The notes under the pieces were generated by a model. That model had not been told where the DNA came from. It saw nothing but the letters and a program-made list of their open reading frames with translations, and did not search any database. This document shows, one piece after another, positions 2,939 through 18,587 of a stretch of DNA of 64,000 nt. The DNA is taken from assembly GCF_016026235.1 (NCBI RefSeq), contig NZ_CP065613.1. One strand, given 5' to 3'. Made by a program: the position numbers and the translations under genes. The DNA is from Escherichia coli (lineage in GTDB: Bacteria; Pseudomonadota; Gammaproteobacteria; Enterobacterales; Enterobacteriaceae). Within the stretch, counting starts at the first letter, position 1; the number at the start of each line of letters is the position of its first letter.

Positions 2939-3012
2939 GCGGGCGTAGTTCAATGGTAGAACGAGAGCTTCCCAAGCTCTATACGAGGGTTCGATTCCCT
3001 TCGCCCGCTCCA
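2939..3012 (+). tRNA. glyU: tRNA-Gly (anticodon CCC)
   Basis: 74-nt sequence GCGGGCGTAGTTCAATGGTAGAACGAGAGCTTCCCAAGCTCTATACGAGGGTTCGATTCCCTTCGCCCGCTCCA; cloverleaf with anticodon loop CTTCCCAAG, T-loop GGTTCGATTCC, 3' CCA. Confidence 0.95.
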
Positions 3013-3245
3013 ATTTATCTTCACCTCATCAATCTGCCATTTTTGCTGTATCTGATTTTCTATATTATCTTAATTCAATCGCTTCAGACTTTTCGCAATC
3101 GCCGTAATATTTCCCCATTTTGTTGTAAATAAAAAGCGTTTACGCAATGCAATCCTTTTGTAACAACCCAGGTAAAACACCTTATTTTCAAGTTGTTAAA
3201 TAAGTGGTTATCTACGCTTTTAACAAACGATTGATGGAATATTTT

Positions 3246-3301: not shown

Positions 3302-3356
3302 GGTGATGCTGCCAACTTACTGATTTAGTGTATGATGGTGTTTTTGAGGTGCTCCA

Positions 3357-3632
3357 GTGGCTTCTGTTTCTATCAGCTGTCCCTCCTGTTCAGCTACTGA
3401 CGGGGTGGTGCGTAACGGCAAAAGCACCGCCGGACATCAGCGCTATCTCTGCTCTCACTGCCGTAAAACATGGCAACTGCAGTTCACTTACACCGCTTCT
3501 CAACCCGGTACGCACCAGAAAATCATTGATATGGCCATGAATGGCGTTGGATGCCGGGCAACTGCCCGCATTATGGGCGTTGGCCTCAACACGATTTTAC
3601 GTCACTTAAAAAACTCAGGCCGCAGTCGGTAA
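3357..3632 (+). CDS. insA: IS1 InsA (transposition repressor)
   Basis: 91-aa [40 protein letters not shown]... with zinc-finger-like CxxC...CxxC; standard IS1 organisation. Confidence 0.9.
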
Positions 3633-4054
3633 CCTCGCGCATACAGCCGGGCAGTGACGTCATCGTCTGCGCGGAAATGGACGAACAGTGGGGCTATGTC
3701 GGGGCTAAATCGCGCCAGCGCTGGCTGTTTTACGCGTATGACAGTCTCCGGAAGACGGTTGTTGCGCACGTATTCGGTGAACGCACTATGGCGACGCTGG
3801 GGCGTCTTATGAGCCTGCTGTCACCCTTTGACGTGGTGATATGGATGACGGATGGCTGGCCGCTGTATGAATCCCGCCTGAAGGGAAAGCTGCACGTAAT
3901 CAGCAAGCGATATACGCAGCGAATTGAGCGGCATAACCTGAATCTGAGGCAGCACCTGGCACGGCTGGGACGGAAGTCGCTGTCGTTCTCAAAATCGGTG
4001 GAGCTGCATGACAAAGTCATCGGGCATTATCTGAACATAAAACACTATCAATAA
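3551..4054 (+). CDS. insB: IS1 InsB (transposase made as InsAB' by -1 frameshift)
   Basis: 167-aa ORF overlapping the insA 3' end; slippery A-run TTAAAAAAC at about 3604-3612 inside the overlap. Confidence 0.9.
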
Positions 4055-4069
4055 GTTGGAGTCATTACC

Positions 4070-4249
4070 CGTCGGGTCAATGTCAATGGTGGCGCGATCG
4101 CACTCGGTCACCCGATAGGCGCTTCCGGTTGCCGAATCCTGGTTTCTCTGGTTCATGAAATGGTGAAACGTAATGCCCGCAAAGGGCTGGCAACGCTTTG
4201 TATCGGCGGGGGCCAGGGCGTGGCATTGACCATTGAACGTGACGAGTAG
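4070..4249 (+). pseudogene. yqeF: 3' remnant (59 codons) of acetyl-CoA acetyltransferase (thiolase) yqeF, truncated by IS1
   Basis: Frame starting immediately after the IS1 right end translates [59 protein letters not shown], a typical thiolase C-terminus; no start codon or N-terminal domain. Confidence 0.8.
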
Positions 4250-4406
4250 CTCTGCATTTCCTCCTTACCGATAAATATCTGCCGTCATTAATCTGTTGAA
4301 TAATGATGGCTGGCAAGTCGACATTCATTTTCTGGGCTCCCTCATTTTTCCATTCTCATGACATATTCGTGATCGACACTGCACTTTTTTTAATCCTTAA
4401 CTTAAA

Positions 4407-4492
4407 AATGAAACATTGTTTTATTTTTAATTGAAAACCCTAGCCCATGGGCATATCATCCCTTTATAGAGAAAACGAAACAGTGTTTCACT
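4407..4492 (+). promoter_or_regulatory. Two KdgR-type operator palindromes in the kduI promoter region
   Basis: AATGAAACATTGTTTTATT (4407-4425) and AACGAAACAGTGTTTCACT (4474-4492) both fit the KdgR box pattern AATRAAAYRNYGTTTYAWT; located 45-130 bp upstream of kduI. Confidence 0.45.
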
Positions 4493-4535
4493 ATCGTTTT
4501 CTATTTTCACGCTTCACTGATTATCGGAGGTTGAT

Positions 4536-5372
4536 GTGGACGTAAGACAGAGCATCCACAGTGCGCACGCAAAAACGCTGGATACCCAAGGGCTGCGCAA
4601 TGAATTTTTGGTTGAAAAGGTATTTGTCGCCGATGAGTACACCATGGTTTACAGCCACATTGACCGAATTATTGTTGGCGGCATTATGCCGATAACTAAA
4701 ACGGTTTCCGTTGGCGGGGAAGTTGGTAAACAACTCGGCGTAAGCTATTTCCTTGAACGTCGCGAGTTAGGTGTTATCAATATTGGCGGTGCCGGTACGA
4801 TTACTGTCGATGGCCAATGCTATGAAATCGGTCACCGCGACGCCCTGTATGTTGGTAAAGGTGCAAAAGAAGTTGTCTTTGCCAGTATTGATACCGCCAC
4901 TCCGGCAAAGTTTTATTACAATTGCGCACCCGCGCATACGACGTATCCCACCAAAAAAGTCACACCGGACGAAGTATCTCCAGTCACGTTAGGCGATAAC
5001 CTCACCAGTAACCGTCGCACAATTAACAAATATTTTGTCCCGGATGTGCTGGAAACCTGCCAATTGAGTATGGGGCTGACGGAGCTGGCTCCAGGTAACT
5101 TGTGGAACACCATGCCGTGTCACACTCACGAGCGCCGGATGGAAGTTTATTTCTATTTCAATATGGATGATGACGCCTGCGTTTTCCACATGATGGGGCA
5201 GCCGCAAGAAACGCGTCACATTGTGATGCATAACGAGCAGGCGGTGATCTCCCCGAGCTGGTCGATTCATTCCGGCGTCGGAACCAAAGCTTATACCTTT
5301 ATCTGGGGCATGGTCGGTGAAAACCAGGTCTTTGATGATATGGACCATGTGGCCGTTAAAGATTTGCGCTAG
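4536..5372 (+). CDS. kduI: 5-dehydro-4-deoxy-D-glucuronate isomerase
   Basis: 278-aa ORF ([24 protein letters not shown]...), GTG start preceded by GGAGG; synteny with kduD. Confidence 0.95.
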
Positions 5373-5401
5373 TTGTGGGCATAAACGAATAAGGTATTGT
5401 T

Positions 5402-6163
5402 ATGATTTTAAGTGCATTTTCTCTCGAAGGTAAAGTTGCGGTCGTCACTGGCTGTGATACTGGGCTGGGCCAGGGGATGGCGTTGGGGCTGGCGCAAGCG
5501 GGCTGTGACATTGTTGGCATTAACATCGTTGAACCTACTGAAACCATCAAGCAGGTCACGGCGCTGGGGCGTCGTTTTTTAAGCCTGACCGCCGATCTGC
5601 GAAAGATTGATGGTATTCCAGCACTGCTGGATCGCGCGGTAGCGGAGTTTGGTCATATTGATATCCTGGTGAATAACGCCGGATTGATTCGCCGCGAAGA
5701 TGCTCTCGAGTTCAGCGAAAAGGACTGGGACGATGTCATGAACCTGAATATCAAGAGCGTATTCTTCATGTCTCAGGCAGCGGCGAAACACTTTATCGCG
5801 CAAGGCAATGGCGGCAAGATTATCAATATCGCGTCAATGCTCTCCTTCCAGGGCGGGATCCGTGTGCCTTCTTATACCGCATCAAAAAGCGGCGTGATGG
5901 GTGTGACGCGATTGATGGCGAACGAATGGGCTAAACACAACATTAATGTTAATGCGATAGCTCCGGGTTACATGGCGACCAACAATACTCAACAACTACG
6001 GGCAGATGAACAACGTAGCGCGGAAATTCTCGACCGCATTCCAGCTGGTCGTTGGGGACTGCCGAGTGACCTGATGGGGCCGATAGTGTTCCTTGCCTCC
6101 AACGCTTCAGATTATGTGAATGGTTATACCATTGCCGTGGATGGCGGTTGGCTGGCGCGTTAA
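5402..6163 (+). CDS. kduD: 2-dehydro-3-deoxy-D-gluconate 5-dehydrogenase (SDR family)
   Basis: 253-aa ORF with SDR glycine motif VTGCDTGLG and catalytic YxxxK (YTASK). Confidence 0.95.
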   Translation: MILSAFSLEGKVAVVTGCDTGLGQGMALGLAQAGCDIVGINIVEPTETIKQVTALGRRFLSLTADLRKIDGIPALLDRAVAEFGHIDILVNNAGLIRREDALEFSEKDWDDVMNLNIKSVFFMSQAAAKHFIAQGNGGKIINIASMLSFQGGIRVPSYTASKSGVMGVTRLMANEWAKHNINVNAIAPGYMATNNTQQLRADEQRSAEILDRIPAGRWGLPSDLMGPIVFLASNASDYVNGYTIAVDGGWLAR

Positions 6164-17161: not shown

Positions 17162-18587
17162 TAATGCCAGTCAGTTAAGCAACTGACTGGCTCTTTTTCG
17201 GGGCTGTGGGGTATTTCCAGGGCCTCTCCTTTACCACTCTCGGGAAGGCCCTTCCCCTTCTCGTCGGTAATTTCACAAGTTGTCCCATACTTGCAAGATC
17301 GCGCATCAGCTCCGGTATACGTCCCGGTGAAGCGCCCTGCAATGTCATCAGCATTCTCATCACCATTCCGCATGATTCTGAGAAACTCAGTTGATTCGGC
17401 CAGTAACCTTTCAGATGTTCCGCCATTTTAATCATCTGATATCTCACCAGATTATAAGCCAGTAAGACACCCCACAGCTCTTGCTCCACAAGCTCCGGCT
17501 TTTTACTTCTCAGCGTCAGCCTGCTCAGTTGCATCGTCTGTTTTATCTCCCTGTATCCCAGTTCGATTTCCCAGCGATGACTGTACAGATCCGCCATTTC
17601 TCCTCCGGGGAAGCGCATGGCGTCCGTCATCGACGTCAGCAGATGGCAGACTTTTCCTTTGCGCGTCACGGTCAGCAGGCGGGCTGTCACTTCATTTCCC
17701 AGTCCCGGCCACTTTTTTCGTGCCTGCGGGCTGGTTTTCAGCTTCACCAGATGATCGCCTTTACCCAGTTTTCTGAGCTCTTCATATTGCGCTCCCTTTC
17801 TGAGAGGTATCATCCAGTGGCGGTGTTCTCCCGCCAGGCTCCAGGCATTTAACAGTCCCAGTGAGTAATAACCTTTATCCATTAACGTCAGAGTGTTATC
17901 GCCGGTTTGTTCTATAAGTTGCTCAGCAAGCTCATTTTCGCTGTTCTTCATCGTGCCGAAGGCTGCAGCCGTCAGCAGATGGCTGGTCAGTTCCATCTGG
18001 CAGACCATTTTGACCTGCGGGTAGAGCGCCGGGTTCCCGGCATGTGTCTGGCGGGGGAAGGCTGCATCGTTCTCTGGTGTATCCGGTGTGCGCCAGAACA
18101 CACCATCGATGGCCAGCAGGGTCAGGCCGCACCAGTGCGGATGCGGCGTGGCGTTATGCCAGAGCTGCGCTGTTTTCGTGAACACGCGGCGGACAGCCTC
18201 ACTTCCCAGGCGCTGGCGGGCCTGAATAACGGCACTGGGGGCAACGAAGGGGCGATTGCCCGGCAGCATGATGTCCAGGCGATTCACAATCTGGTGAAGA
18301 GGTTCTTTACGCTCAAGCGCCATGCCAACAATACACCAGACCATCATTTCGAGGGGAAGACGGCGCTTGCGTAGCGTTACAGTACCTGATTCGGCAAGGC
18401 AACGAGAGATGAGTTCGGGGTCGAGGTAATCCCCCAGAGAAGTCAGTGGGTTACGCAGAGAATCGTAACGGGATACCAGATCAAGAGCCTGTCCAATGTG
18501 CATAAAAAAATCCGGAAACAAGTGAGCGTTTCCGGATTCTTACACAGCCACTGGATCGGTCAACTGATCCTTAACTGATCGGCATTA
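17162..18587 (-). mobile_element. IS4 insertion sequence (1426 bp)
   Basis: Terminal inverted repeats TAATGCCAGTCAGTTAAG... (17162-) and ...CTTAACTGATCGGCATTA (-18587); 1426-bp length; one long transposase ORF; flanked by a 13-bp direct repeat. Confidence 0.9.
17175..18503 (-). CDS. insG: IS4 transposase (DDE family)
   Basis: ORF 17175-18521; likely start [18 protein letters not shown]... at 18503 (442 aa). Confidence 0.9.

Follow-up and report, generated by a model that had tools for sequence, protein, structure and literature searches.

The DNA analysed here (the window) is a 64,000-nt segment of an Escherichia coli chromosome. It is the counterpart of the K-12 region running from xdhA, actS and glyU to kduI, kduD and araE, and corresponds to about 2.925-3.002 Mb of K-12, a range extrapolated from our mapping on the assumption of synteny. 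Within it, intact kduI and kduD genes are preceded by two KdgR-type boxes, O1 and O2, and further upstream by a remnant of the thiolase gene yqeF and a single IS1 (Table 1). This work concerns the two boxes, the protein that is likely to bind them, and what an IS1-mediated deletion on their upstream side has left in place.

Table 1. Features of the kduI upstream region and its surroundings, in window coordinates
Feature	Coordinates	Strand	Basis and remarks
tRNA-Gly(CCC)	2939-3012		
IS1, 768 bp, sole copy in the window	3302-4069	+	self-BLAST, flanks, open reading frames insA/insB; IS1-family transposase in matched genomes
yqeF remnant, last 180 of 1182 bp	4070-4249	+	TAG stop at 4247-4249; maps to K-12 yqeF (L085 6591-6412)
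CGTGATC box in CRP-like core CGTGA-N6-CTGCA (candidate)	4368-4383	no strand	left half near-invariant in the 24-genus alignment
O1, KdgR-type box AAATGAAACATTGTTTTATTT	4406-4426	no strand	centre 4416, about -50; pattern and matrix matches
Sigma-70 core promoter TTGAAA-17-TATCAT	4431-4459	+	-35 TTGAAA at 4431-4436, -10 TATCAT at 4454-4459, 17-bp spacer between; sole promoter-like site in 4050-4600
O2, KdgR-type box AAACGAAACAGTGTTTCACTA	4473-4493	no strand	centre 4483, about +18; pattern and matrix matches
TCGTTTTCT, possible leader stem	4494-4502	+	complementary to AGAAAACGA (4470-4478), overlapping the O2 left arm
Shine-Dalgarno GGAGG of kduI	4527-4531	+	invariant in alignments
kduI, 278 aa, GTG start, intact	4536-5372	+	open reading frame; Pfam KduI, E = 1.2e-38; K-12 counterpart annotation
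kduD, 253 aa, intact	5402-6163	+	open reading frame; Pfam adh_short, E = 6.1e-58

A first-pass annotation had described the two sites as 19-bp palindromes that fit the KdgR box, and this description holds, with exact coordinates; the 21-mers used here are the same sites. The 19-mer in O1, AATGAAACATTGTTTTATT (4407-4425), is symmetric at 8 of its 9 pairs, and that in O2, AACGAAACAGTGTTTCACT (4474-4492), at 7 of 9, with a perfect 13-bp core, GAAACAGTGTTTC. The centres of the boxes are 67 bp apart. When a degenerate KdgR-style pattern, RAAAYRNYRTTTY, was scanned over the window, it matched exactly twice, at O1 and at O2, with 0.49 matches expected.

Two position weight matrices (PWMs) gave a more quantitative view. 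PWM1 was built from the orthologous kduI boxes of non-Escherichia species, while PWM2 is a symmetrised 21-bp matrix of 51 KdgR-type boxes non-orthologous to O1 and O2, taken from beside ogl and kdgM in other genera and from K-12 kdgT and kdgK; its independence is only partial because these 51 boxes were collected with PWM1. The null was provided by 200 first-order Markov simulations of the window. Under PWM1, O1 scores 29.7 bits and O2 26.8 bits, against 14.1 for the next match in the window and simulated maxima that averaged 11.7 and never exceeded 21.0. Under PWM2, the type of scan that had been proposed as a check, the scores are 28.1 and 24.0 bits, with the next match at 11.1 and simulated maxima averaging 9.8 (standard deviation 3.4) and never above 19.1. 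The reverse check agrees, as PWM1 places its top match of an 11-kb locus upstream of K-12 kdgT (28.0 bits) and that of a 15-kb locus upstream of K-12 kdgK (21.3 bits), and both genes are classical KdgR-repressed genes (PMC6892915). The comparison boxes from other genera precede two canonical genes of the KdgR regulon, ogl (Pfam Pectate_lyase22, E = 3.4e-202) and kdgM (Pfam KdgM, E = 1.4e-63). No third KdgR box was found by the matrix scan in the yqeF remnant or in the rest of the intergenic region.

The two boxes flank the sole sigma-70-like promoter upstream of kduI, for which the RpoD genomic SELEX catalogue gives identical hexamers (PMC3946193). Transcription is predicted to start at about position 4466, and relative to this point O1 would span roughly -60 to -40, ending 4 bp ahead of the -35 hexamer, with O2 lying just downstream of the start at roughly +8 to +28. 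This placement is compatible with repression. Upstream of O1, the CGTGATC sequence is kept in 23 of the 24 aligned genera and belongs to a CRP-like box centred about 90.5 bp before the predicted start and about 42 bp upstream of the O1 centre. Judged by the CRP pattern TGTGA-N6-TCACA, the left half looks like the strong half of a CRP site, and the right half of this box agrees with TCACA at 2 of 5 positions in E. coli (CTGCA) and at 4 of 5 in Citrobacter (TTACA), and we tentatively regard 4368-4383 as a candidate activator site. The CGTGATC region was also considered as a degenerate KdgR box, which its score of -8 bits rules out for E. coli.

Conservation was followed at two scales. A scan for KduI in species-representative genomes yielded 80 loci, of which 79 were usable and 76 are non-Escherichia. 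One locus that was dropped (L005, positions 1-560) comes from the metagenome-assembled contig JACZXR010000090.1, which is labelled Deltaproteobacteria and carries a 100% identical E. coli kduI with unrelated DNA joined 14 nt upstream of the GTG, and is a chimeric assembly or contamination. In essentially all of the 79 loci O1 keeps TGAAAC-N3-GTTTTA with its central 3 nt free, and O2 conforms to CGRAAC-N3-GTTTY in 66 of 76 by a strict regular expression, with recognisable variants in most others. TTGAAA followed by an exact 17-bp spacer and TAnnWT is present in all 76 non-Escherichia loci. The distance between O1 and O2 ranges only from 65 to 69 bp (67 in 42 loci, 68 in 19, and 65, 66 or 69 in 5). 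An alignment of 24 genera of Enterobacteriaceae reveals a distinct footprint made up, in order, of CGTGATC (4368-4374), O1, an invariant TTGAAA, a variable 17-bp spacer, TAnnAT, O2, GGAGG and GTG, and in both boxes the half-sites are kept while the central 3 nt vary.

Within the species, the 181-bp region 4360-4540 is found in 5418 of the 5426 complete E. coli genomes surveyed, with at least 95% identity in all but 8, and the window is identical to K-12 over this region. In three divergent strains most changes affect the spacer, the flanks or central bases. Only the most divergent of them (93.9% identity) has a change in a half-site core, C>T at 4414 in the GAAAC of O1.

It could still be argued that the palindromes are functionless symmetry arising by chance in AT-rich DNA, as the region is indeed AT-rich and at least two matches to the loosest pattern, RAAAYRNYRTTTY, occurred in 10 of 100 shuffles. 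However, the matrix scores of O1 and O2 exceed the best of the 200 simulated windows by 5-9 bits, both matches fall within 67 bp at one promoter, half-sites are kept across 76 species while the spacer between them varies, and there is genetic evidence for KdgR control (PMC6958661, PMC6892915). Conservation effectively refutes this explanation, to which we give next to no chance, and we consider it confirmed that both palindromes are real.

The gene on the other side of the kduI promoter differs among species. A divergent ogl, often accompanied by kdgM, lies upstream of kduI in 43 of the 79 species, each with its own KdgR-type box, and a yqeF-type thiolase does so in 35 species, Escherichia included. 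In other Enterobacteriaceae (loci L009-L084) a third box, TATCAAAACnnnGTTTCAwtr, is found some 240-400 bp ahead of kduI (positions 2250-2270 of L068 and 2140-2160 of L018 are examples), and in the 43 species with ogl it stands in front of that gene. At least 19 species of the thiolase type keep this 'ogl' box without ogl, either relic or auxiliary operator; Escherichia is without it.

The upstream boundary of the retained DNA is set by IS1. Its insA and insB genes are oriented toward kduI, its left flank maps beside glyU and into the 5' end of ygeQ, and its right flank lies inside yqeF. The flanking 9-mers differ, and the lack of a target-site duplication is as expected for a deletion mediated by an insertion sequence (IS). 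A single IS1 here joins two sequences that are normally distant, which marks an IS1-mediated deletion. Compared with K-12, 14,182 bp are missing, from the first 1002 bp of yqeF to most of ygeQ, a stretch comprising the K-12 ETT2 remnant, and what remains of yqeF still encodes the end of a Thiolase_C domain (Pfam, E = 5.7e-25, profile positions 68-123 of 123). The nearest complete genome, FDAARGOS_943, shows 7 differences over 13 kb and allows the event to be seen against a closer background. Relative to it the deletion is of 6,568 bp. FDAARGOS_943 has itself lost most of ETT2 to IS3 and IS2, its corresponding region (L090 13376-20179) holding a ygeQ fragment, an IS3, a hypothetical gene, an IS2 and yqeG, and its yqeF is reduced to a pseudogene by an internal stop. 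What the IS1 deletion took away was therefore a remnant already in decay.

The exact pair of IS1 junctions is absent from the 5426 complete genomes, and the sole record with at least 80% coverage has a different, three-piece arrangement. In many other E. coli genomes an IS1 lies about 50-750 bp or less from this glyU-proximal point, which suggests a hot spot for insertion. Between glyU and the ygeQ 5' end, about 73 bp (3026-3098) are present in FDAARGOS_943 and have no counterpart there in K-12. A literature search for a link between ETT2 regulators and kduI found no paper with both terms.

The first-pass annotation had placed the end of the deletion about 290 bp upstream of kduI, and this has to be corrected. 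The IS1 edge at 4069 lies 466 bp upstream of the kduI GTG, and the smaller value corresponds to the distance from the yqeF stop to kduI, an intergenic region of 286 bp (4250-4535). Its other statement, that both operators were left by the deletion, is borne out, because this whole intergenic region remains together with 180 bp of yqeF. With the edge at 466 instead of about 290 bp, the conclusion of retention becomes safer. Between IS1 and O1 there are 337 bp, and between IS1 and the outermost conserved element 298 bp; the recognisable conserved cis elements all fall within 4368-4538, untouched. The cis-regulatory region is fully retained.

Taken together, the best explanation is that O1 and O2 are the KdgR operators of kduI-kduD, that they flank the sigma-70 promoter of these genes, and that they have been kept beside the deletion; we put the probability of this reading at about 0.85. 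That kduI-kduD has KdgR operators and is under KdgR control in E. coli is already known, because the promoter is identical to that of K-12, boxes were predicted in 2000-2004 and later genetic work has demonstrated KdgR dependence; the IS1 context is a local annotation point only. The PlaR paper dates the prediction of the kduI boxes by comparative genomics to those years, and reports by Northern blot that kduD mRNA rises in a K-12 kdgR mutant (PMC6958661). In a strain with a 39-gene deletion including kdgR, kduI and kduD are over-expressed by RNA-seq (PMC6892915), loss of KdgR up-regulates kduD in Klebsiella (PMC8612250), and kduI is listed as a core member of the KdgR regulon (PMC6127512). 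Moreover, the kduI promoter fragment of Rothe et al. was induced 7- to 54-fold by galacturonate or glucuronate (PMC3578941). This reporter fragment maps to 4212-4568, wholly downstream of IS1, and the retained DNA also contains the forward primer site (4249-4268) of their complementation construct.

From the placement of the boxes we infer how the promoter would be controlled, presuming a working kdgR in this strain. Without inducer, KdgR dimers would sit on both boxes, where occupancy of O1 would block the docking of RNA polymerase as well as upstream activation, and occupancy of O2 would block open-complex formation or promoter escape. Breakdown of pectin or hexuronates would then generate 2-keto-3-deoxygluconate, KdgR would leave the DNA and the operon would be expressed. 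It is established that 2-keto-3-deoxygluconate is the inducer of KdgR. Some activation may come from the CRP-like box at about -90, and PlaR (YiaJ), a paralogue of KdgR with a similar box, probably co-represses. DNA looping between O1 and O2 was considered as well and is unlikely, as their spacing sets the two sites on nearly opposite faces of the helix.

Several points weigh against this reading or narrow it. The spacing of 67-68 bp, or about 6.4-6.5 helical turns, speaks against looping or cooperative binding and therefore favours independent binding at each box. In the searchable literature neither an electrophoretic mobility shift assay nor a footprint with E. coli KdgR was found for kduI, nor was a measured kduI transcription start, so that position 4466 stands as a prediction. 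The kdgR gene lies outside the window, and retention was seen for cis elements only. Readthrough from IS1 into kduI is conceivable, with no terminator-like site found in 4050-4600, and could shift basal expression; loss of the adjacent AT-rich island could alter it too, given that the spacer is listed as H-NS-bound. Lastly, PlaR binds the kduI region in vitro by genomic SELEX (PMC6958661), which makes it a second candidate occupant beside KdgR.

This last point raises the question of whether O1 and O2 are mainly PlaR operators, or whether the two paralogues take one box each, an arrangement that would fit the distinct flavours that O1 (TGAAAC...GTTTTA) and O2 (CGRAAC...GTTTCG) keep across genera. 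In the PlaR study (Shimada et al. 2019), kduI is among the genomic SELEX targets, kduD mRNA is markedly increased in a plaR mutant, gel shifts confirmed twelve PlaR target probes (which the gel-shift section does not name), and the published PlaR box, ATnTGAAACnnnGTTCAnTT, resembles both O1 and O2 (PMC6958661). Both boxes do fit this degenerate consensus. However, the PlaR gel shifts were made with 1-5 uM protein and kduD is derepressed in a kdgR mutant too (PMC6958661), and the plaR effect could be partly indirect because kdgR and plaR affect each other's mRNA. In the strongest PlaR target, the plaR-yiaK spacer, the best KdgR-type match, ATTTGAAATCAAGTTTCGCAT, has a score of no more than 7.1 bits where the same matrix gives the kduI boxes 27-30. 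The kduI boxes are therefore far closer to those of ogl, kdgM, kdgT and kdgK, and are KdgR-type first, with PlaR as a probable secondary occupant. A predominant or shared role of PlaR thus seems unlikely to us.

A second concern is that the cis elements are intact and regulation is nevertheless lost, be it by loss or mutation of kdgR, by readthrough from IS1 or by changed H-NS silencing. The kdgR gene is not open to inspection in the window, the IS1 genes face kduI with no terminator-like site in between, the yqeF-kduI spacer is flagged as H-NS-bound (PMC3946193), and the lineage is gathering IS events, with IS1 here and an IS4 at 17162-18587. Against this, no hybrid promoter was detected at the IS1/yqeF junction (4050-4600), and the wild-type yqeF is likewise transcribed toward kduI, so the orientation of upstream transcription is unchanged. 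In addition, the plasmid-borne 4212-4568 fragment, out of its chromosomal context, is still inducible by hexuronates (PMC3578941). A hairpin also follows the yqeF stop, formed by an inverted repeat at 4281-4310 with 13-bp arms (GCCGTCATTAATC/GAATAATGATGGC, -15.5 kcal/mol, z = -2.8) and no T-run after it; it may act as a terminator, weak or Rho-assisted, or as a 3' stabiliser of yqeF mRNA. We consider a loss of regulation distinctly unlikely. The suggestion of the first-pass annotation that kduI-kduD regulation probably survives the loss of the island stands as far as the cis elements go, these being intact and identical to K-12, and survival has been shown for them alone; that regulation is materially altered in this strain has, in our estimate, only a small chance of being true.

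O2 could also, or instead, work in the RNA, within a stem-loop of the kduI mRNA 5' leader that affects stability or translation. For the predicted leader (4466-4535) the folding energy is -16.7 kcal/mol (z = -2.6), with AGAAAACGA pairing to TCGTTTTCT. In other genera, too, O2 is followed by a box complementary to its left arm, and arm and box change together, as in the arm/box pairs AACGGA/TCCGTT, AAGCGGA/TCCGCTT, AAACGGAAC/GTTCCGTTT and AAATGGAAC/GTTCCATTT. This covariation is seen in E. coli, Citrobacter, Trabulsiella/Yokenella and Kosakonia, with a pairing register that differs by 1-2 nt between genera. Per-sequence shuffling gave p <0.05 in 18 of 73 leaders, against about 3.7 expected, a count that overstates independence because the sequences are phylogenetically related. 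On the other hand, RNAalifold found no consensus structure among 76 distinct kduI leaders, and an Rfam scan of 4000-4700 (E <= 1) returned no known RNA element, only a spurious plant microRNA match at 21 bits against a threshold of 74. Enterobacter, Lelliottia and Kluyvera lack the extra box, which is weak in the cryptic Escherichia clades. Furthermore, such symmetry can be a property of the DNA, because the extended symmetry of O1 (19-nt arms, z = -3.9) is just as strong although O1 is untranscribed. We regard an RNA-level role of O2 as very unlikely; if true, the 5' stem-loop would set the stability or translation of kduI mRNA independently of the repressor.

The extra box deserves a description of its own. 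It lies 1-5 nt after the right half of O2 and takes the forms TCGTTTTC, TCCGTT, TCCGCTT, GTTCCGTTT and GTTCCATTT (L013, L046, L057, L075, L078 and others). It is tempting to speculate that O2 is dual-coded, serving as a KdgR site and, through 4494-4502, as a leader stem, or that the extra box serves KdgR or PlaR as a third half-site and so allows a second binding register, although we would hold either idea to be improbable. The box could instead reflect quasi-palindrome-templated mutation.

Our preferred reading, in which O1 and O2 are KdgR operators, can be set beside better-known systems. The closest is K-12 itself, to which the window is identical over 4360-4540 and with which it shares the downstream genes, the 3' end of yqeF and the listed hexamers; the difference lies upstream of 4070, where the window has IS1 and K-12 has the first 1002 bp of yqeF and the ETT2 remnant. 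The KdgR operators of Dickeya, Pectobacterium and other gamma-proteobacteria have the same GAAAC-N3-GTTTC core and AT-rich flanks. Nasser et al. (1992) reportedly described the relief of KdgR repression by a pectin catabolite, and to our knowledge E. coli K-12 has no pectinases. Compared with the KdgR consensus of the pectinolysis regulon, RWWGAAACGNCGTTTCAKKA, which has been ascribed to Rodionov 2004 (PMC8222616), the E. coli boxes have A/T and not G/C at the positions flanking the centre, with mismatches at 4 of 19 positions per box.

Among regulators of the IclR family, to which KdgR and PlaR both belong, the likeness to the PlaR box ATnTGAAACnnnGTTCAnTT extends to a near-identical half-site and to kduI as a reported target (PMC6958661). 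The strongest PlaR site, in the plaR-yiaK spacer, differs from O1 and O2 in having GAAAT instead of GAAAC and scores poorly on the KdgR-type matrix. Both boxes fit the IclR 'group 2' motif TGRAACA-N1-2-TGTTYCA (Suvorova and Gelfand 2021, PMC8222616), O1 as TGAAACA-T-TGTTTTA and O2 as CGAAACA-G-TGTTTCA. Typical tandem sites of the family lie 18-22 bp apart centre to centre (PMC8222616), unlike O1 and O2, which are 67 bp apart and flank the promoter, and the three-box arrangement with alternating directions described for the family (PMC8222616) is not present here.

The Bacillus subtilis kduID genes look similar at first sight, with the same operon, two operators and a repressor of the same name. 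This operon is said to have two KdgR-binding sites, a finding attributed to Lin and Shaw (2007). In Bacillus, however, KdgR belongs to the LacI family and shares no ancestry with the enterobacterial KdgR of the IclR family. The likeness would thus be one of analogy, not homology.

Two further observations concern neighbouring DNA. Rothe et al. described a separate hexuronate-inducible kduD promoter fragment within the 3' part of kduI (PMC3578941), and no KdgR-type box was found in the 460 bp upstream of kduD, the best matrix score in 4991-5450 being -1.4 bits. Further downstream in the window, 17162-18587 is an insertion of about 1.4 kb that matching genomes annotate as IS4 and that FDAARGOS_943 does not have. 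It sits between tas and ygdR by the annotation of that genome, and its flanks overlap by 13 bp, consistent with target duplication.

Because the deletion spared every recognisable control element, kduI and kduD can be annotated as normally regulated. The finding has little significance beyond correct annotation, with two further gains, the correct placement of the deletion edge and a map of the conserved promoter layout across the Enterobacteriaceae. This layout, with its CRP-like box, O1, -35, -10, O2 and ribosome-binding site, could guide the dissection of control by KdgR and PlaR.

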